Assembly (NCBI GenBank): GCA_036475875.1 | Contig: JAZGAR010000236.1 | Location: 1-12,897, forward strand | Length of the DNA stretch: 12,897 bases | Source of the DNA: Thermoplasmata archaeon | GTDB lineage: Archaea; Thermoplasmatota; Thermoplasmata; GCA-020350865 | Direction of reading: 5' to 3' | In this document: positions 3,576-12,738 of the stretch, piece after piece | How positions within the stretch are numbered: position 1 is the stretch's first letter | Layout of the letters: each line of letters begins with the position of its first letter | Made by a program: the position numbers and the translations under genes | The notes under the pieces: model-generated | Seen by the model: only the letters and a program-made list of their open reading frames with translations | Told to the model about the DNA's origin: nothing | Database searches by the model: none

Positions 3576-4046
3576 TCATCCCTTTTTGCTCCAAAGACGT
3601 TTTGCCCACCATGGAGCTTTTGCATCCTCCACAAAATCATGCTTATTTGAATATGGCTTGATATCCAAAATTGGACTGCCGTTCAATGCATCCAGGCCTT
3701 CAACCCTTAACACGTTCTTTTCCCTTCCCAACAATCTCACCGCTCTAACACCTATAGGGTTCGGCCTGTAGGGGGTTCTTGTGGTCAATACCCCCATGAG
3801 AGGAAGGTCCTTCCTTCCCTTGGGATGAATCTTCAATTTCTTCCGCCTCTTCTCTTCAACCCTATCCATCCAAAATACGACGACTATATGGGAATTTTCC
3901 TCGATTAAGTGCAGCGCCTCGGAAAGTTTCTCATGGATCACTATCTCCGAGATGCGGGTTTCGTATCCTTCAGGAACCTTATCCTCGAAATCGTTTTCCA
4001 CCACCCCGATGGGCTCGATTCTCATGGCTTTCCCTCGATTTCCCAT
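3576..4046 (-). CDS. trmO: tRNA (t6A37-N6)-methyltransferase TrmO (TsaA/YaeB, UPF0066 family)
   Basis: IEPIGVVEN at the N-terminus, then SHIVVVFWMD, GVLTTRTPYRPNPIGVRAVRLL and GLDALNGSPILDIKPY. The second ATG at 4025 (MRIEPIG) fits family N-termini better than 4046. Confidence 0.8.
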   Translation of the reverse strand: MGNRGKAMRIEPIGVVENDFEDKVPEGYETRISEIVIHEKLSEALHLIEENSHIVVVFWMDRVEEKRRKKLKIHPKGRKDLPLMGVLTTRTPYRPNPIGVRAVRLLGREKNVLRVEGLDALNGSPILDIKPYSNKHDFVEDAKAPWWAKRLWSKKG

Positions 4047-4502: not shown

Positions 4503-5081
4503 TCATCTCTTTCTCGTGGTCTTCAACTCAGAGCCGCAGACCGGACATGAATCCTGCATCTTCTCCCAGTACCGCCCGCAGCCCTTGCATCTGTACCTCC
4601 ATTTTATGGTCTCTGTAATTCCTTTCTGGGCAATACCCTGATATTTGACCTCAAGCTCTGTTGCTAGGTTCTGGATGGAATAATCGTCTGTTAGAAGGAC
4701 AGCATCGAGCTCCTTTGCCAGGCTCAGAATCTCTATGTCGGCCTCGGTTACGCGGGCTATGTCACCTGTTTTGGAGGCACAATTTCTTACCTCGTCTAGG
4801 ATTTCCTTCGTGGGAGACATCACCTTTAATCCTGACTCGATGAGGTAGTCCAATCTCCTTCTCATCCTTCCATGTTTGAGCTCATCCAGAATTTTCGGGG
4901 AGGAGTAAAGCTCGTTGTCAGAAGATAAGTCCTTGCCTGAGAGAATCGCAGATGTATCCAACACGAATTTCATTACTTTTGGGATGGGATGGAGGGTATA
5001 TTTTGATTGCGGTTGAATGCGTGGAACAGAGTCGGTTTTCAAATCTGAATGAAACGTTTTTTTGATGTTTTCCACCATCAC
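4503..5081 (-). CDS. nob1: Archaeal Nob1-like endonuclease (PIN domain + C-terminal zinc ribbon), small-subunit rRNA 3' end maturation
   Basis: PIN N-terminus FVLDTSAI and the acidic LLTDDYSIQN, with a C-terminal ribbon CKGCG...CPVCG. The start is ambiguous. GTG 5081 or ATG 5078 overlap the upstream stop (GTGATG), whereas ATG 4973 (MKFVLDTS) gives the usual ~156-aa archaeal Nob1. Confidence 0.75.
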   Translation of the reverse strand: MMVENIKKTFHSDLKTDSVPRIQPQSKYTLHPIPKVMKFVLDTSAILSGKDLSSDNELYSSPKILDELKHGRMRRRLDYLIESGLKVMSPTKEILDEVRNCASKTGDIARVTEADIEILSLAKELDAVLLTDDYSIQNLATELEVKYQGIAQKGITETIKWRYRCKGCGRYWEKMQDSCPVCGSELKTTRKR

Positions 5082-6142
5082 AAAACAAAGAAATATAGAA
5101 TACCGGCGACAATTCCCACCACCGCAGCCGCAACCGCACCCACCTTAACCCAAGATATCGGCGCGTAGCCTTGCACCTCCCCTGTCTGCCCGTTTATCAA
5201 GAAATGATAGGTCTTGTTTTTATAATGATACGCTGCAACCCAGATTGGCAATAGAACATGCTTGTAGGTTATTTTGCCGAAGGTGGTATTAATTCTCAGG
5301 AATCGATGGGTATCGCCAGGTACATCAGCAGCACATTTGGCACGCTCATCTGCTTTAACGTTATCCTTGGCAATTTCCCAACCCTGGCGAACGTCGATCG
5401 CATATTCCTCCGCGAGCCACCCGCTCAAATACTCTGGTTTGTAGGGTACCAGCTGCTGCAAATTGAACGGGTAAATCTTGAATACCAAATGGTAGTCCAA
5501 ACCCTTTGAAGCAACGATGAGCACATCATTGTAAAAACCATCTCGGGCGCCAGAGGATGGAACCCATCTTACTTTTCTCACCTGCCTGGTTTTTGTAACC
5601 CTTTTTCCGTTTTCGTATGCGGTGTAGGTTTCTGTTACGTGGTAGTAGTAACCGCTTTCTGCGGTCCAATTAGAATGTGTATTGCAATCGTAGGTCCAGA
5701 ATGGGGTGTAAACGCCCTTTAGCAGCTCCAATCTACCGATTTTTTTGAGTTTCGAGGGTCTAAAGAAGCCTTTAGCGATCCAGGTGAAATACAATTCCTT
5801 TGCCCTGTCACGACCCACATCAAATGGTGCGAGAGTCTCCGGGCGGATGATGTCTGGATGTGCAGGTGTCTCTTTAACATACGATGAGCCACAGAATGCG
5901 CAATCACCAGCAACTTTTGCTCCAACTGAGGTTGTGGCCCCACAGTTATTGCACTAGATTGTGGTCACCTTGGTGTCCCAGCCTAATGCCGTGGGCGCTG
6001 AAAAAAAGTCATGTTCTTCGATTGCCTTATGTTCCACCTCGATAACCTTTACTGACCCGCAATAGTCGCACTCCAACTTCTGGCTTTTGGGATCGAATTC
6101 CAAGTACGCACCGCAGTTCTCGCATTCGAATTGTTTGACCAC
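5078..6142 (-). pseudogene. Double zinc-ribbon protein with conserved central domain and C-terminal TM anchor, interrupted by one in-frame TAG (5954-5956)
   Basis: The 62-aa ORF (6142-5957; ribbon 1 CENCG...CDYCG) and the 246-aa ORF share one frame. The 135 nt between them have no stop and encode ribbon 2 (CNNCGATTSVGAKVAGDCAFCGS). The only break is TAG at 5954-5956. The C-terminus is a hydrophobic helix (VGAVAAAVVGIVAGILYFFVL). GTG start at 6142. Confidence 0.6.
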
Positions 6143-7065: not shown

Positions 7066-8106
7066 CTATTTCTTCCTGTACACACAAAAGTTTCTTGTCA
7101 GGGATTTATGGACCCGTAATGCATAGGATTCCTTCAGGCTCAGATATTTCTCCCCAATTTGAATGAACTTCGCATCTGGCAACAGGATGGATAGATATCC
7201 ACCAGGTTTCAGCACCTCTGAGAAGGTCTTAAAAGCCCTTTTGTAAAGGCTAAAAACCTCCTCACCATTGGTTGTGGCGGACCTCCCATATGGAGGATCC
7301 GTGGCAATGGCGTCCACATCTTCCATCTTATTGATAACTTCCCTGATATCGGAACAAAAAAGCTCTGCATTCTGGATATTGAGACTGGATAGGTTCTCTT
7401 GACAGCCATCAACCATTCTCTTATCGATATCGCTGCCTATCGGCTTCGCACCCACCAATGCAGCCTCTATCAAAACCCCACCAGTGCCGCAGAAAGGATC
7501 GAGAAGGGTTTGACCTTTTTTTACCCTTGAAAGATTCACAAGTGCCCTGGCCAACCTCGGGTGAAGAGACACAGGCGAAAAATACGGCCTGAACTGGACT
7601 TTTCTGGATTCAAAGGCACTCCTGTCGATTTTGGCCAGGGTTATCCCTATATGGCACCTGTCTGAGAGAATCACCCTGACCTCAATATTTGGGTCTGAGA
7701 GATCCACCTCGTTCTTGCCCACCACATTCTCAGCAACCGTCCTTTCCACATCTTTGAGGTTAAGATTCTCATGAAATCTCTGTATTCTCTTTGCCCTCAC
7801 AGCGAAGCTTCCTTCTCCAATCTCAAAGGCCTTTCTCAGCGCAGCCAGTTCATCTGCCTCGCAAGAAAAGAGGTGGTTCTGGATATTGTGCGTTAGAGCC
7901 AACCTTCTCTTCATTTCCTCTAAGTCCAATTCCGGTACATCCATGATGAGAACACCCAAATCCTCCTCCGCGACCCTGAAATCGATTTTTTCAGCCTCTA
8001 GGCAGCCGATTATCTCAGCCTTTGGAAGGCTTTCATGTTCTCCTGAAAGTTCAAAAATAAAGCCGCACTTGTTTTCATTTGAACTTGAAGTCAAGTGCTT
8101 CAACAT
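7066..8106 (-). CDS. trm11: tRNA (guanine10-N2)-methyltransferase, archaeal Trm11/Trm-G10 type (THUMP + class I MTase)
   Basis: The N-terminal half is THUMP-like. The C-terminal half has SAM motif I LDPFCGTGGVLIEAALVGA and the catalytic ATDPPYG. ATG 8106 has GGAG 9 nt upstream, so I prefer it to the GTG at 8121 given in the ORF track. Confidence 0.8.
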   Translation of the reverse strand: MLKHLTSSSNENKCGFIFELSGEHESLPKAEIIGCLEAEKIDFRVAEEDLGVLIMDVPELDLEEMKRRLALTHNIQNHLFSCEADELAALRKAFEIGEGSFAVRAKRIQRFHENLNLKDVERTVAENVVGKNEVDLSDPNIEVRVILSDRCHIGITLAKIDRSAFESRKVQFRPYFSPVSLHPRLARALVNLSRVKKGQTLLDPFCGTGGVLIEAALVGAKPIGSDIDKRMVDGCQENLSSLNIQNAELFCSDIREVINKMEDVDAIATDPPYGRSATTNGEEVFSLYKRAFKTFSEVLKPGGYLSILLPDAKFIQIGEKYLSLKESYALRVHKSLTRNFCVYRKK

Positions 8107-8172
8107 GTAAATTATCTCCACTTCCGTTTGTCAACCATCATTAATTAACGAGCTAGGGGCATAATACCCCCT

Positions 8173-8577
8173 TTATTCGATGGGCTCAATATTGAAAATA
8201 CAAGCCTTGTCCCCAACGCTCTCGCATTTCTTCTCGATGCAGAAAATCCTCTCGGTCCCATAAGATTCATATAAATGTCGTAATATGCCCCTCAGCCTGT
8301 GACAAGTCGGCTCTTCGTTCTTTGAGACCTCTATCGAACCTTTTACAGTGATCTTGTTACCATCAAATATGACATCCTCCACCCAACCTCGCTCTTTTAA
8401 CACATTTTTGGCTATCTCGAAGTAGTTATCCCTTTTCTTCATTGCCAAGGCAGCGATATCCGCCCCCAAAGCACTTCCTTCCCTGAAAAATAGGCCATGG
8501 CAGGCATTTGACATTACGCTCTCATAAAGCTTGCCTATTTTTTTGAGTTCTTTTTGAGAAATTTTGACATATCGCAT
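8173..8577 (-). CDS. V4R (4-vinyl reductase) domain protein, putative small-molecule binding
   Basis: 134 aa with the V4R-like layout G..ALG..IA, and C-terminal CHRLRG......C.E..C...GD.ACIF cysteines. A TATA-like TTTTATAC sits about 17 nt upstream of the ATG. Confidence 0.55.
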   Translation of the reverse strand: MRYVKISQKELKKIGKLYESVMSNACHGLFFREGSALGADIAALAMKKRDNYFEIAKNVLKERGWVEDVIFDGNKITVKGSIEVSKNEEPTCHRLRGILRHLYESYGTERIFCIEKKCESVGDKACIFNIEPIE

Positions 8578-8785: not shown

Positions 8786-9049
8786 ATGGTTAGAATGGAC
8801 AACAAGGTTGCACTTCGTTTTACATTTATTAGCGAGCCAGAGAAGCCTGTGGTCACTGTACAGGTTCCGAAGGATATGTTGTTTCAGGAAGCGTTGGTTC
8901 TGGCTGCAAAAAAACAGGGCAAGGATCCCAGCATTTTAAGCGCCACATATCCAGCAGGTACGCCTATTACCGGCGGAACGGTTGAAAAGGTCATTGAGCA
9001 GGGCGCCAATATACATGTCATCGACCCCTCCGTCGTGGGTTCAAGGTAA
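8786..9049 (+). CDS. ufm1: UFM1-like ubiquitin-fold modifier, pro-form (Gly85 followed by Ser-Arg)
   Basis: Aligns end to end with human UFM1 as recalled. KVALRFTFISEPEKPVVTVQVPKDMLFQEALVLAA matches [35 protein letters not shown], and the C-terminus IHVIDPSVVG-SR matches LRIIPRDRVG-SC. ATG 8795 is an alternative start. Confidence 0.8.
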   Translation: MVRMDNKVALRFTFISEPEKPVVTVQVPKDMLFQEALVLAAKKQGKDPSILSATYPAGTPITGGTVEKVIEQGANIHVIDPSVVGSR

Positions 9050-9136: not shown

Positions 9137-9661
9137 TTGGCACCAAGACGTGATGCTGTGAAGCAGGAACCGGATTTATTCTATTTCTTGCAATGCTCCA
9201 CCGTGGTTTCTCCACAAGATGAGCAATGGGCTATGAGGATCAAGGAGGAGAAATACGCCCTTTTAAAATACATACAGTATGTGGATTACATGGAGAAGAG
9301 CGAGAAAGAGCAACGATGGTTCTCAATAAGACCTATTGGCGAAGATGCCATACGATGGGAGGGCACTGTAACAGCGGAAAACAGGACCTATCTCATAGAA
9401 ATAGTGCTTAAAGACTCTTATCCGTACACACCTCCCGCCGCAAGAGTGCCTGAACTTATGCGCTACACAGACAGAAAGCTAGATGACAATATCCTGGGCT
9501 TGAGAATCTGCGATATGCATATGGAGCAGAACTACTGGTGGAACGAGTACTGCAGTCTTGCCCTGTACTTGAAAAGAGAAGTATCGTACTGGCTGCAGAG
9601 CGTGATATTCCATCTGAAGCAAAAAGGTTGGTTGGAATGGACGAAAGGTATCAACGACTAG
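9137..9661 (+). CDS. ufc1: UFC1-like E2 (UFM1-conjugating enzyme homologue), catalytic Cys at 9509-9511
   Basis: Four blocks match UFC1: SPQDEQWAMRIKEEKYALLKYI vs [30 protein letters not shown]..IRWEG vs DWFRLES..TRWFG; DSYPYTPPAARVPEL vs ITYPTTAPEIAVPEL; LRICDMHM vs GKICLTDHF. There is no HPN motif; TDR sits where UFC1 has TAK. Homology extends upstream of the first ATG (9233), so the start is probably TTG 9137 or GTG 9158. Confidence 0.8.
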   Translation: MAPRRDAVKQEPDLFYFLQCSTVVSPQDEQWAMRIKEEKYALLKYIQYVDYMEKSEKEQRWFSIRPIGEDAIRWEGTVTAENRTYLIEIVLKDSYPYTPPAARVPELMRYTDRKLDDNILGLRICDMHMEQNYWWNEYCSLALYLKREVSYWLQSVIFHLKQKGWLEWTKGIND

Positions 9662-10527
9662 CCCTGTTTGAATTCGCTGATTTCTCGAAGCTTCGCAACA
9701 AGAGCGCTTTGGTTGTGGGAGTTGGGGGCCTTGGAGCAACTGTGGCAGAAATCCTCACCAGAGTGGGTATCGGAAGATTGGTGCTAATAGATTACGATAA
9801 ACTCGAAATAGCCAATATGAACAGATTGATATACAAGCCAAGCCAGGTTGGAATGTATAAGGTGGAGGCTTTGAAAGATTACCTCTTTGAAATCAGTCAA
9901 GACGTGGATATCGTGGCTTATCCCAACGACATTACCACGGGAGAGGGATATAAAATCTTTATCGAGGAGACCGAGAAAAGTGATGTGGTTTTTGGATGTG
10001 TGGATACATTTGGGGTGAGGCTTTTTATGAACGCAAAATGCGTAAAGAAGGGGAAAACGTTTATTGACGGCGGAGCGAGCCTTGACGGCATTAGAGGTAG
10101 TGTACAGGTGGTGATACCGGGCAAAACCGCCTGCTACAGATGTCATAGACATGTGTTGGGCCTGGGAAAGGAAAGACCGCAAGAACCAGATGTGGATTCG
10201 AAGGATGTCAAGGAGGATATGGAGTTCTACTTAGGGTTCGAGGAACCGGGAAAAGACAGAGAATCAGGGCTTTGCCACATAACTTCTTTGCCCACCACGA
10301 TGGCTATAATCGCTGCCCTACAGTGTCAAGAGGGTTTCAAGTATCTATTGAATTTCGGTGAGGTGGCTGGGTTTTTGATGTACAACGGCTTCAGAGGTGA
10401 GATAGAGAGGTATGACAGAGAGATAGACCCGAATTGTCCTGTATGTGGAAAGGGAAAAACCCAGTTGGACGAGAAGAAGCTCAAGGAGATAGATGAAGCT
10501 GCAAAGATGTTCGATAAGATGACCTAG
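9637..10527 (+). CDS. uba5: UBA5-like E1 (UFM1-activating enzyme homologue), adenylation domain only; catalytic Cys at 10273-10275
   Basis: VGVGGLGATVAEILTRVGIGRLVLIDYDKLEIANMNRLIY matches UBA5 [40 protein letters not shown]. Further matches are CVDTFGVR / CVDNFEAR, VIPGKTACYRC / IIPGESACFAC, GLCHITSLPTTMA / GVCAASLPTTMG and KYLLNFG / KFLLNFG. The second zinc pair is CPVC. I place the start at ATG 9637 (MDERYQRL, matching the YSRL start of the UBA5 domain). The ORF is open from 9538, but that stretch overlaps the E2 gene. Confidence 0.85.
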   Translation: MDERYQRLALFEFADFSKLRNKSALVVGVGGLGATVAEILTRVGIGRLVLIDYDKLEIANMNRLIYKPSQVGMYKVEALKDYLFEISQDVDIVAYPNDITTGEGYKIFIEETEKSDVVFGCVDTFGVRLFMNAKCVKKGKTFIDGGASLDGIRGSVQVVIPGKTACYRCHRHVLGLGKERPQEPDVDSKDVKEDMEFYLGFEEPGKDRESGLCHITSLPTTMAIIAALQCQEGFKYLLNFGEVAGFLMYNGFRGEIERYDREIDPNCPVCGKGKTQLDEKKLKEIDEAAKMFDKMT

Positions 10528-10543
10528 CTTGCGGAGTGTGATC

Positions 10544-11587
10544 ATGGTTGACCAAAACAATGTGGTGATGAAGCGCGACCTGAAAAGAGCCATAATAGAG
10601 CATGCATTGGACGGGGCGAGAAAGGATGGTTATGAAGTTCTGGGTTGGCTTACCGGCTTCTCCACAAAAGACACTGTTTACATATGCGATGCGGTCCCAT
10701 GCACCAAGTACAAGAGACAGTCTAGATACAGTGCTGAGGCTGACCCGAGCGAAGAGGCCAAGCTGGCAAGTGAGTTTCCAAGGAATGTGGGCATCGTCGG
10801 TTTATACCACTCCCATCCATTCAAGATGGATCATGAGTCAGGCGAATTCAGAAGGCTCTACGGGGTGAGTGAGCTTTTCCATAGCGGTACGGACGATGCC
10901 ATGCTGAGAAGCAGATCCAGTAGGATGAAGAACTATGTCTCTGTTGTTACAGATATAGATAACATATCCTGCTATGTAATGCACCGCAAGAAGCCCAAGA
11001 AGGTCAAGGAGAACCTGGTGAGTGACATCAATTTCAAGGATCATTTGCGGCCTATAAATTCGAAGATCCAGTTCACCATCAATAAAAGGTTCGATAAAAA
11101 ATTGGGTCTCGGTAAAATGATCAGAGCCATCGAGGAGAAGTTGTTGGAAGACATAGACAAGAAAGTGAAGGAAGACGCTGTTCGGATTCAACAGGGTCCA
11201 GTAGGCAACGTGATGCGAATACTGCCCTTCGAACGGAATCTCAACGAGAGGGCAGGCAACGCCAAAGGGAATTTTTTCCGCATAGCTCCAGAGAATGGAA
11301 AGGTAAACATCAAGGCTGTGATGAACCTCACGCCCACAATCTTCGTGCAGAAAGGCTACATCGATCTATCCTCTGCCACAGAATCCATGAAGAACGAGAT
11401 CGCCGACTACATCGTTTACCTCACATGGAACGATATCGAATACTCAGAGTTCGAGAGGCATTTGTCCTCGCAAATAAGGGAGTTGGAGGTCCATTTGGGG
11501 CGTTTAACAACAAAATACGATGAAATGAGTGGTATTCCAATGAAGATCTACACAAGGCCTAAAAGAAGGATGACCCTTAAAAAGTAG
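10544..11587 (+). CDS. JAMM/MPN+ metalloprotease with ~200-aa uncharacterised C-terminal domain (candidate pro-UFM1 processing / de-UFMylase)
   Basis: The motif elements are YEVLGWLTG (catalytic Glu), GLYHSHP (10808-10816) and HSGTDD (Ser-x-x-Asp). ATG 10544 has GGAG 8 nt upstream and lies 16 nt after the E1 stop; the TTG at 10529 is the alternative. I recognise no family for residues ~150-347. Confidence 0.75.
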   Translation: MVDQNNVVMKRDLKRAIIEHALDGARKDGYEVLGWLTGFSTKDTVYICDAVPCTKYKRQSRYSAEADPSEEAKLASEFPRNVGIVGLYHSHPFKMDHESGEFRRLYGVSELFHSGTDDAMLRSRSSRMKNYVSVVTDIDNISCYVMHRKKPKKVKENLVSDINFKDHLRPINSKIQFTINKRFDKKLGLGKMIRAIEEKLLEDIDKKVKEDAVRIQQGPVGNVMRILPFERNLNERAGNAKGNFFRIAPENGKVNIKAVMNLTPTIFVQKGYIDLSSATESMKNEIADYIVYLTWNDIEYSEFERHLSSQIRELEVHLGRLTTKYDEMSGIPMKIYTRPKRRMTLKK

Positions 11588-11589
11588 GT

Positions 11590-12738
11590 TTATGTGACCA
11601 ACCTCGCCCCGCATTTTCTACAGAACATATCTCCAGGCTCGACTTTCGTGCCGCAGCCCACGCATTTAAGCTCCTCTTTCACTGGTTTACCGCATTTTCC
11701 GCAGAAAACATCCTCGTTCTTCACCTTCGCACCGCAGTTCGGGCAGTAATTCTGTTCCTCCTCTTTTTCTTCCTCCTCCCCTTTGATTTCTTCTGGTGGA
11801 GGTGGTGGTTCGATTTTGGGTAAGATCATCCTCCCGATGCTTTCTTCATAGCATTCCCTACAGGTGGTCTCCTCTCCGCCGTTAACCTCGATACAGATAT
11901 AGGCTATTTTTCTCTCGCCGCAAATGGAGCATATCTTAAGTTCCTCAGGCTCAATATGGGCAGTTGCCAGGTCTGAAATGATCTTCTTTCCTTCTTCACC
12001 CTCTCCTGGTGCAACGCCGAAAAGTGCTTCTGCCCCCCTTTTGGAGCAAAGAGCAAGCTTGAAGGCCTCGTCATAATCTTCCTTGGCAAAGCAGGCTTTC
12101 GCCTCGGTAAGCAATCTTTGGGCTTCACTTGCATCTGAATCAGCCATCATTGCATTCTCTTTTGCTGTGCCTGCCAAGGATATTGTGAACTTCGCAGCCA
12201 GGTAATTATCTGGTTTTTTCTCGATGGTATTTGATATATCTGGGATTTCCTCATGGAATTTGAGCACTTCTTTTGGCTTTTGGTTCTCCCCCACCAAATC
12301 CACTATCTCCTTGGGGGTTGATCGTGCCTCAATATCTGAATTCGAGGACACGACCCCAAAACCCGTTTTTTTGTCCCAATCCTTCTTTGAGCTCAATAAA
12401 AGCTCTTTCGCCTCCTCTATGGTAAATTTAGCCTTCTTTTCCAATCCCTGATCGTAGTAGGTATTCGCCTTGCTTATCAAATCCTCGGCAGAACCGGTGT
12501 CAATGCCTCTTCTTTTGAGATCAGTGGCTATCCTCCTCGTAGAGTTGATGATATTGAAGATATCGTCTGAATCCGGGGTCGAGGAAATCGCCTCCAAAAC
12601 TTTCGTCTCCTTCCTTTTTTTTACTGAAGGACCCTTTCTGACCTTCAACAGAATCCTTATTCCCATCCCAATTACAAAAATTACTCCAGCTACTATAATC
12701 AAAAAAAGAACTAGGCTTTTTATTTCTTCGGCCGTCAT
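11590..12738 (-). CDS. N-terminally membrane-anchored protein with helical repeat region, Pro/Glu linker and three zinc ribbons (one CxxC...CxxC plus a double zinc ribbon)
   Basis: A TM helix (LVLFLIIVAGVIFVIGMGIRILL) is followed by KVRKGPSVKKRKETK, so the rest is predicted cytoplasmic. MIT/TPR-like helices are present (SEAQRLLTEAKACFAKEDYDEAFKLAL). Then come CSICG...CRECY, a PPPPPEEIKGEEEEKEEE linker, and CPNC-x10-CGKC-x9-CVGC-x10-CRKC. TATA-like TTTAAATA (12762-12769) lies 23 nt upstream of the ATG. Confidence 0.7.
   Translation of the reverse strand: MTAEEIKSLVLFLIIVAGVIFVIGMGIRILLKVRKGPSVKKRKETKVLEAISSTPDSDDIFNIINSTRRIATDLKRRGIDTGSAEDLISKANTYYDQGLEKKAKFTIEEAKELLLSSKKDWDKKTGFGVVSSNSDIEARSTPKEIVDLVGENQKPKEVLKFHEEIPDISNTIEKKPDNYLAAKFTISLAGTAKENAMMADSDASEAQRLLTEAKACFAKEDYDEAFKLALCSKRGAEALFGVAPGEGEEGKKIISDLATAHIEPEELKICSICGERKIAYICIEVNGGEETTCRECYEESIGRMILPKIEPPPPPEEIKGEEEEKEEEQNYCPNCGAKVKNEDVFCGKCGKPVKEELKCVGCGTKVEPGDMFCRKCGARLVT

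Follow-up and report, generated by a model that had tools for sequence, protein, structure and literature searches.

A putative JAMM/MPN+ isopeptidase in the UfSP position of a UFM1-like conjugation cassette from Thermoplasmata

The stretch of DNA analyzed here (the window) comprises 12,897 nucleotides (nt) of a contig from a Thermoplasmata archaeon, and the gene in question is the one at positions 10544 to 11587, which follows genes for a ubiquitin-like protein (Ubl), a conjugating enzyme (E2) and an activating enzyme (E1). This gene probably encodes an active JAMM/MPN+ isopeptidase that requires zinc and serves specifically the UFM1-like modifier of its own operon. This assignment draws on the fold of the N-terminal domain, the conservation of the residues that form a JAMM active site, the constant order of the surrounding genes and the types of E1 and E2 encoded next to it. 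Together with a convergent zinc-ribbon gene, these genes form a compact five-gene Thermoplasmatota cassette in which a UBA5-like E1, a UFC1-like E2 and a UFM1-like modifier are accompanied by a predicted metalloprotease in place of UfSP.

Comparisons were made with 23 related loci (L001-L023) from metagenomes and GTDB genomes, with a family set of 59 full-length members of the JAMM protein reaching down to ~32% identity, and with an AlphaFold model of the full-length protein built with 20 homologues.

The JAMM protein and its active-site residues

The gene and the parts of its product, all on the forward strand, are as follows.

10544 to 11587, forward: JAMM/MPN+ protein with a C-terminal domain, 347 amino acids (aa); AlphaFold full-length predicted local distance difference test score (pLDDT) 80.7, predicted template-modelling score (pTM) 0.78
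10544 to 11014, forward: MPN/JAMM catalytic domain, residues 1-157; Foldseek matches to Rpn11 (5u4p_B, 8e-7) and to Caldiarchaeum Rpn11, CsRpn11 (6fnn_A, target-normalized template-modelling score, TMt, 0.74), ~170 aligned columns
10634 to 10636, forward: predicted catalytic Glu31, in EVLGW (residues 31-35); invariant, 59/59
10808 to 10819, forward: His89-Ser-His91-Pro (HSHP, residues 89-92) with two predicted zinc ligands; invariant, 59/59
10820 to 10882, forward: non-canonical linker or insert between the His-x-His element and the Ser-x-x-Asp helix, residues 93-113, with invariant Phe112-His113 at its end; pLDDT ~50
10883 to 10894, forward: Ser114-Gly-Thr-Asp117 (SGTD, the Ser-x-x-Asp element) at the N-terminus of helix 115-126; Ser114 and Asp117 59/59, Asp118 56/59
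11015 to 11584, forward: family-specific C-terminal domain, residues 158-347; modelled alone, pLDDT 86.3 and pTM 0.84; best superpositions UfSP2 and Caenorhabditis elegans UfSP (CeUfSP)

The ATG at 10544 lies 16 nt past the E1 stop codon. The list of open reading frames also offers an alternative TTG start at 10529, and it is the ATG that agrees with the N-termini of all homologues. The protein is 100% identical to V3U20_08055, a protein from an NCBI metagenome-assembled genome (MAG) of a Thermoplasmata archaeon, and no hydrophobic transmembrane (TM) segment was seen in its sequence. The initial annotation had placed a JAMM gene directly after the E1 gene and had read EVLGW, HSHP and SGTD as its motifs, and all three are present.

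Evidence for the fold came from structure comparison. A Foldseek search of the AlphaFold model against the PDB returned 192 matches at E<=1e-3, and the top matches, at probability 1.00, were yeast Rpn11 (5u4p_B) and CsRpn11 (6fnn_A), followed by CSN5, BRCC36, AMSH and a bacterial Ubl-deubiquitinase (DUB) complex. The MPN fold match to the two Rpn11 proteins reached E~1e-6 and covered the first ~157-170 residues.

Amongst the 59 family members, Glu31, His89, Ser90, His91, Pro92, Phe112, His113, Ser114 and Asp117 are invariant. The initial annotation had named loss of metal ligands across orthologues as the observation that would speak for an inactive protein, and no such loss occurs, since the Glu, both His, the Ser and the Asp are kept in 59/59. 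Judged by its sequence, the protein thus bears the marks of an MPN+ enzyme and not those of an MPN-minus scaffold. The JAMM protein evolves much faster than its partners, with 32-82% identity to the window protein, compared with 62-96% for the Ubl, 57-85% for the E2 and 50-79% for the E1 at the same loci.

His113 (10880-10882), also invariant, stands immediately before the catalytic Ser in an FHSxxD arrangement; in canonical JAMM enzymes the residue in this position is Leu or Pro. His113 could serve as an additional metal or catalytic residue.

The conjugation partners

The order Ubl-E2-E1-JAMM is kept in every locus long enough to show it, with intergenic gaps that are short or replaced by overlaps. 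The three genes upstream of the JAMM gene are the following.

8786 to 9049, forward: UFM1-like Ubl, 87 aa, ending in IDPSVVG/SR; weak UFM1 matches; first cassette gene in all loci that reach it
9137 to 9661, forward: UFC1-like E2, 174 aa, catalytic Cys125 in LRICDMHME; Pfam UFC1 (PF08694) at 3.3e-10 and 40.3 bits, cut-off 25
9637 to 10527, forward: UBA5-like E1 with a ThiF fold, 296 aa, its first 25 nt shared with the end of the E2 gene; human UBA5 at 1e-47, compared with 2e-20 for MoeB, the next family

A profile search of the PDB with the E2 family matched UFC1 chains only, at 9e-10, with the catalytic Cys aligned to the KICL of UFC1; Cys125 is invariant in the E2 family alignment. A profile search for UFC1-like E2 proteins recovered the same Thermoplasmatota family only (107 proteins), a restriction that is probably owing to the word index of the search. 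In the E1, GLCHITSLPTTM aligned to GVCAASLPTTM of human UBA5, the context of the catalytic Cys, within a single adenylation domain carrying that Cys, and the motif G-x-C-H-x-[TA]-S-L-P-T-T-M with the catalytic Cys, together with two CxxC zinc motifs, was found in 23/23 loci.

The E1 differs in length between clades, being 296 aa in the clade of the window (9637-10527) and 250-252 aa in most others (for example L001, 7247-7999, and L002, 7273-8031). The extra ~45 residues (RHVLGLGKERPQEPDVDSKDVKEDMEFYLGFEEPGKDRES) belong to the crossover-loop region and immediately precede the catalytic Cys. A long C-terminal extension resembling the UFM1- and UFC1-binding tail of UBA5 is lacking in all of these E1 proteins.

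For the Ubl, a search of the PDB with the single sequence gave matches to UFM1 only, at E 0.045-0.5, in end-to-end alignments that finish at Val-Gly. A comparison with human UFM1 in hhalign gave P=8e-5 and a probability of 61% over 41 columns, all N-terminal; a profile search of the PDB was empty, and no Pfam match was obtained. The Val-Gly end of the Ubl is invariant across loci, and 17/22 orthologous Ubls stop exactly there. Residues past Val-Gly were observed in 6/23 Ubl genes, namely SR in the window, FQ in L004, T in L005, FR in L006, GLPALDSGALTV in L016 and SLPPSIL in L020. Such tails are therefore limited to the clade of the window (SR, T, FR, FQ) and two other loci, and the need for processing of a Ubl precursor is clade-specific.

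A C78 (UfSP) peptidase was found neither in the window nor in the related loci, and the cassette holds no other protease. The proposal of the initial annotation that the cassette is a hybrid, joining UFM1-type conjugation to JAMM-type deconjugation, is borne out in its components by an E1 that is UBA5-like, an E2 that matches UFC1 only and the absence of C78/UfSP from the cassette. No UFL1-DDRGK1(-CDK5RAP3)-like genes occur within the loci, to which the comparison was confined.

The make-up of the cassette also bears on whether the Ubl tags proteins at all. One could suspect that the JAMM protein instead works in sulfur transfer or cofactor synthesis, as in the MoaD/ThiS/CysO-Mec+ or SAMP pathways, given that the E1 belongs to the ThiF/MoeB superfamily and that the best NCBIfam match of the JAMM protein is a desampylase model. 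Sulfur-carrier pathways use no E2, whereas the cassette always brings its own E2, in which the catalytic Cys is invariant, and no rhodanese, MoaE, ThiG or cysteine synthase gene is found in the cassette. With the desampylase score also far under its cut-off (36 bits, cut-off 130), a role of this kind appears scarcely probable.

Motif spacing and the question of activity

The canonical JAMM motif reads E-x(n)-H-x-H-x(7)-S-x-x-D. The 7-residue gap is present in solved JAMM enzymes, such as BRCC36 (HSHPHITVCPSHVD) and BubCD (H91/H93/D104). In the window protein the gap from His91 to Ser114 is 22 residues (Pro92 plus the 21 residues of 93-113), and the same 22 residues are found in about three quarters of the family, within a range of 11-24. 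The long gap had been noticed in the initial annotation, as ~21 residues between HSHP and the Ser-x-x-Asp element compared with ~7 in Rpn11 and AMSH, and it proves to be real and family-wide across the 59 members. In the AlphaFold model the Ser-x-x-Asp element sits at the N-terminus of the predicted helix 115-126, the same position that it takes in canonical JAMM enzymes, and the insert is, in this model, a variable-length loop between the His-x-His strand and the Ser-x-x-Asp helix that ends in the invariant Phe-His. The initial annotation had placed the insert near the channel for the Ubl tail; with its length ranging over 11-24 residues and its model of low confidence, the geometry of the insert and its contact with the Ubl tail are matters that we infer.

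Several of these results weigh against an active isopeptidase acting on a UFM1-like protein and need to be considered together. The canonical H-x-H-x7-S-x2-D spacing is present in no member (0/59). The segment 94-127, which contains Ser114 and Asp117, was modelled at pLDDT ~50, so that the active-site geometry is that of a low-confidence part of the model. Sequence-profile matches of the JAMM domain are marginal: Pfam JAB matched the N-terminal part at E=6.9e-5 and 23.1 bits (cut-off 22.5), Prok-JAB fell just under its own cut-off, and the best NCBIfam match, the desampylase model NF041370, reached 5.6e-9 over residues 8-95 only. Every sequence alignment with known JAMM proteins terminates right after HSHP, a sign that the motif region departs from the norm in its later part. 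Additionally, the assignment of the Ubl to UFM1 is weak in sequence, given the best E-value of 0.045, the hhalign probability of 61% and the empty profile search.

The same spacing, the low-confidence segment and the marginal Pfam and NCBIfam scores would also fit a non-catalytic MPN scaffold like Rpn8, CSN6 or ODR4, in which the change in spacing abolished hydrolysis and which would organize the E1, E2 and Ubl or act, through its C-terminal domain, as an adaptor resembling a ligase (E3). Scaffolding MPN proteins likewise carry a large additional domain, and MPN pseudoenzymes do exist in the eukaryotic UFM1 pathway (PMC10952357). Pseudoenzymes lose their ligands, however, and here the Glu, both His, the Ser and the Asp have remained invariant in all 59 members although identity falls to ~32%. 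Furthermore, the length of the linker varies while its flanks are fixed, as expected if the flanks must meet at a metal site. We therefore regard a scaffold without catalytic activity as distinctly unlikely, and an active JAMM/MPN+ isopeptidase remains the favored reading. The protein also constitutes a natural experiment on the JAMM active site, with its ligands invariant and the intervening loop 11-24 residues long instead of 7.

Proposed function and mechanism

Two tasks can be envisaged for a protease encoded next to its Ubl, namely maturation of the Ubl precursor and removal of the Ubl from conjugates. Maturation as the only task, with residues past Val-Gly removed and no deconjugation, would be compatible with the two-residue tail of the window Ubl, which resembles that of pro-UFM1 (VG/SC in human, VG/SR here), and with CsRpn11, which processes its own precursor. 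At the 17/22 loci where the Ubl already ends at Val-Gly, however, the JAMM gene is kept and its catalytic residues are intact, and maturation alone is thus highly unlikely. The presence of the JAMM gene and its catalytic residues throughout, with most Ubls lacking a tail, points to deconjugation and recycling as the conserved function and to tail trimming as a clade-specific extra. For this reason, the suggestion in the initial annotation that failure to cleave the SR tail would disprove the protease assignment does not hold, because trimming of SR is not the conserved job. A precedent for both tasks in one JAMM enzyme is provided by CsRpn11, which has been shown by experiment to mature its precursor and to remove the Ubl from conjugates (PMC6043591).

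By analogy with the JAMM family, the standard JAMM mechanism can be proposed for the favored isopeptidase. Glu31 would act as the general base that activates a zinc-bound water, the zinc would be held by His89, His91 and Asp117, and Ser114 would stabilize the tetrahedral intermediate. A hairpin at residues 56-66, with invariant Tyr56, Gln59 and Arg61, may replace Ins-1 and pair with the extended C-terminal tail of the Ubl, and this pairing would bring the bond that follows Val-Gly85 to the metal. In its conserved role the enzyme would cleave Ubl-Lys isopeptide bonds on targets, and probably also on auto-modified E2 or E1, such that the modifier is recycled. In the clade of the window, the tail of 1-2 residues (SR) would be trimmed as well, exposing Gly85 to the UBA5-like E1. 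The long variable linker with its Phe-His end may reshape one wall of the catalytic groove and would probably select a Val-Gly (UFM1-type) over a Gly-Gly end. The C-terminal domain may pack on the MPN domain and would most likely act as a docking or dimerization module toward the E2, the zinc-ribbon protein or a ribosome-like target.

The C-terminal domain and its relation to ODR4 and UfSP2

The C-terminal domain (residues 158-347, ~190 aa) is kept in all full-length members. In the initial annotation the C-terminal two-thirds of the protein were described as lacking any recognizable match; this was upheld at the level of sequence, and the size was revised to ~55% of the protein, as the MPN domain ends near residue 157. 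No Pfam match (searched per member, E<=10), no NCBIfam match and no PDB profile match (E<=10) were obtained for the domain. A Pfam AEP_C962R match in 1/20 members (E=0.013, under the cut-off) was dismissed as chance. An exhaustive HMMER search of 1.84 billion representative proteins yielded 28 clusters, each of which either has the domain behind an MPN domain or is itself a fragment, and the named carriers are all Thermoplasmata, Thermoplasmatota, Methanomassiliicoccales or an unclassified 'Methanobacteriota' MAG.

In the model, the domain has the topology beta-beta-alpha-beta-beta, beta-beta-beta-alpha, followed by a four-stranded meander. Its conserved features are the invariant Glu285 and Asp288 (11396-11407) on the long helix, a strand with E-x-H-L-G, the motif L-P-x-K-x-Y-x-x-P-x-R and a basic tail. 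The Glu-x-x-Asp pair, ExHLG and LPxKxYxxPxR together suggest a conserved binding surface. The pTM of 0.78 obtained for the full-length model suggests that the two domains have a fixed arrangement.

A Foldseek search like the one proposed in the initial annotation for residues ~150-347 was run with the C-terminal model (residues 158-347) against the PDB and gave no match at E<=1e-3. Below this threshold, ranks 4-9, 14 and 22 were occupied by mouse UfSP2 (3oqc) and C. elegans UfSP (5xda, 5ejj), with query-normalized template-modelling scores (TMq) of 0.36-0.43, probabilities of 0.2-0.66 and E-values of 0.04-0.7 that are not significant by themselves. The other matches in the top 50 had TMq<=0.28, and in a control search of viral models (BFVD) TMq was <=0.22 at comparable E-values. 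The PDB holds four distinct C78-containing sequences, and UfSP1 (2z84), which consists of the C78 domain only, was absent from the top 50 matches of the C-terminal domain. Since UfSP1 is without the non-catalytic N-terminal domain, its absence suggests that the part of UfSP2 that was matched is the N-terminal domain. CeUfSP was absent from the top 50 Foldseek matches of the full-length model. Neither a second MPN domain nor a degenerate C78 domain was accepted as an identity for the C-terminal domain, as there were no MPN structures amongst the matches, UfSP1 lay outside the top 50 and no invariant Cys or His was present.

These superpositions are of interest in light of what is known about eukaryotic UFM1 proteases (PMC10952357, PMC13137144, PMC9638016). 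ODR4 (C1orf27) is an MPN pseudoenzyme partner of UFSP2, in which the N-terminal half is an MPN domain without catalytic residues and the C-terminal half is a domain of the UFSP2 N-terminal type, and C. elegans UfSP (ODR-8) holds an MPN domain, a domain of the UFSP2 N-terminal domain (NTD) type and C78 in one chain. The archaeal protein may tentatively be read as a catalytically active homologue, or an ancestor-like form, of ODR4 and of the MPN plus NTD half of UfSP/ODR-8, in which case deconjugation of UFM1 would originally have been metalloprotease-based. The C78 cysteine protease would then have joined this two-domain scaffold at a later stage, after which the MPN active site degenerated. 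We consider this homology possible but doubtful.

Sequence comparisons gave no sign of this relationship. The ODR4-like family PF14778 had no match at E<=10 in 20 members, and hhalign comparisons of the archaeal family with mammalian ODR4, and of the C-terminal domain with the N-terminal domain of UFSP2 and the C-terminal part of ODR4, gave probabilities <1%, within the range of 20 shuffled controls and with low power, as the ODR4 profile had an effective number of sequences (Neff) of 1. The ODR4 set was all mammalian, and the human UFSP2 sequence was checked against 3oqc. If the C-terminal domain were related to the UFSP2/ODR4 domain, this would account for an odd feature of the eukaryotic pathway, in which an inactive MPN domain accompanies the UFM1 protease as a partner or, in nematodes, forms part of the same chain. 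If the protein were indeed an active counterpart of ODR4, a complete UFM1-type cassette (UFM1, UFC1, UBA5) would exist outside eukaryotes and Asgard archaea, in Thermoplasmatota.

The zinc-ribbon gene and the surroundings of the cassette

The fifth gene of the cassette runs toward the JAMM gene.

11590 to 12738, reverse: convergent zinc-ribbon protein, 382 aa, with an N-terminal TM helix, a long linker and three zinc ribbons; Pfam DZR/Zn_Ribbon_1

It lies tail-to-tail with the JAMM gene in 19 loci (including L001, 8997-9377, and L002, 9018-9461), and in the window the two stop codons are 2 nt apart. In other clades the protein consists of a soluble core of ~126-147 aa with an acidic N-terminus, a [LI][RK]I[RV][ED] motif and the three zinc ribbons, whereas the N-terminal TM helix and ~250 extra residues are present in the clade of the window only. 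The neighboring membrane protein of the initial annotation is therefore membrane-anchored in the clade of the window only, and what is conserved in it is the soluble portion of ~130 aa that bears the three zinc ribbons. This conserved gene product, the only extra partner seen in the loci, may serve the cassette as a substrate, an adaptor or an E3-like factor.

Further upstream of the zinc-ribbon gene, and on the same strand, other clades carry a gene for a basic protein of 46-58 aa (...VVHLNVxSGY[IL][TS]YL...VKG...; L001, 9453-9623, reverse), and a DUF6015 gene lies divergent from it (L001, 9801-10160, forward). Each was seen in 14-16 loci, and the window contig ends before these positions.

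The flanks of the cassette loci hold housekeeping genes for aRF1, ArgRS, a Nob1-like PIN protein, TrmO and a THUMP methyltransferase. In the window, the following were recognized.

3576 to 4046, reverse: TrmO-like protein
4503 to 5081, reverse: Nob1-like PIN and zinc-ribbon ribonuclease
7066 to 8121, reverse: THUMP-domain methyltransferase; syntenic in the closest relatives (L004-L006) only
8173 to 8577, reverse: V4R-domain protein, directly upstream of the cassette; syntenic in L004-L006 only

Several of the window neighbors between 3576 and 8121 are RNA- or translation-related. Amongst the genes of the same region, a frame of 355 codons at 5078-6142 (reverse) encodes two CxxC...CxxC zinc-ribbon units, a ~250-aa domain without a Pfam match and a C-terminal TM helix, and is broken by a single in-frame TAG at 5954-5956 (...KVTTI*CNNCGATT...). 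TAG also ends the E2, E1 and JAMM genes as a normal stop codon, and genome-wide pyrrolysine recoding thus seems unlikely; a pseudogene, an assembly error or local read-through are candidate explanations.

These surroundings also help to judge whether the cassette could be an anti-phage or conflict system of the Bil, Bub or CBASS-Cap2-Cap3 kind, in which the JAMM protein would be a regulator of the Cap3 or BilC type that strips the Ubl from phage or host targets. The inventory of four parts (Ubl, E1, E2 and JAB) is the same as in such systems (Iyer et al. 2006, PMC1779556), the structural matches include the bacterial Ubl-DUB complex 8tyx, the family is rare (28 clusters), and weak PADLOC matches were obtained for the E2 (7.8e-5) and for the E1 with models of E1-E2 fusions. 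The JAB model of PADLOC, in contrast, matched the JAMM protein only at E=0.0075 and 13.7 bits, the E1 and the E2 resemble UBA5 and UFC1, respectively, in a specific manner, and searches of 50,697 phage records and 72,556 plasmid records gave no match. The flanks are of the housekeeping type, and the confinement of the family to a single phylum, with colinear gene order, has the look of vertical inheritance and not of a patchy spread. An anti-phage function is therefore unlikely, and an origin from a defence system or mobile element was rejected on the PADLOC scores and the lack of phage and plasmid relatives. Regarding the distribution of the cassette, a pattern-based genome scan recovered it in 20 species-level genomes, a count from which diverged members would be missed.

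Comparison with known systems

Operons with genes for a Ubl, an E1, an E2 and a JAB peptidase are already known from prokaryotes (PMC1779556), those of CsRpn11 and of Bil, Bub and CBASS being examples. According to recent surveys, UFM1 and UFC1 occur in eukaryotes only (Picchianti et al.; 2026, PMC12962969) or, alternatively for UFM1, in eukaryotes and Asgard archaea, and the literature that was searched contained no account of UFC1-like or UFM1-like genes from Thermoplasmatota. The cassette would offer a minimal, reconstitutable system in which UFM1-type chemistry proceeds without the UFL1-DDRGK1-CDK5RAP3 ligase, and in which the original targets of the modification may be sought.

A close archaeal parallel is CsRpn11 (PDB 6FJU/6FNN), encoded in an archaeal Ub-E1-E2-RING-Rpn11 operon. 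Like the window protein, it is a soluble, operon-encoded archaeal JAMM protein that lies beside its own Ubl, E1 and E2, and it shares the top of the structural matches with yeast Rpn11 (TMt 0.74 for CsRpn11). The system of CsRpn11 is, however, ubiquitin-type, with a Gly-Gly end, a UBA1-type E1, a UBC E2 and a RING E3, and not UFM1-type. CsRpn11 also has the canonical 7-residue spacing, is without the 190-residue C-terminal domain and acts on a precursor that is always tailed. The desampylases HvJAMM1 and PfJAMM1 of the SAMP/UbaA system are likewise archaeal MPN+ isopeptidases for a beta-grasp modifier, but these are single-domain proteins of ~130-140 aa with canonical spacing, and the SAMP system operates without an E2, whereas the cassette always includes one.

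Amongst bacterial systems, the JAB peptidases of Bil/Bub and CBASS Cap3 share the four-component Ubl-E1-E2-JAB operon and the fold (8tyx). These systems differ in being anti-phage and in having their own E1 and E2 families, which are often fused, and the spacing in BubCD is canonical.

In eukaryotes, UFSP1 and UFSP2 (peptidase C78) occupy the same position in a UBA5-UFC1-UFM1-type pathway, where they remove the modifier and in some lineages mature it. They belong to an unrelated class, that of the papain-like cysteine proteases, whereas the enzyme predicted in the archaeal cassette is of the JAMM type. ODR4 and ODR-8 resemble the archaeal protein in that an MPN domain is followed, in the same order, by a second alpha/beta domain and in that they belong to the deconjugation step of the UFM1 pathway. 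In contrast to the archaeal protein, which keeps all catalytic residues and is without a TM segment, ODR4 lacks catalytic residues and has a C-terminal TM anchor, and neither ODR4 nor ODR-8 shows detectable sequence or profile similarity to it. Altogether, what is new relative to the known Ubl-E1-E2-JAB operons is the UBA5/UFC1 type of the E1 and E2, the JAMM protein in the place of UfSP, the odd motif spacing throughout the family and the lineage-specific second domain.

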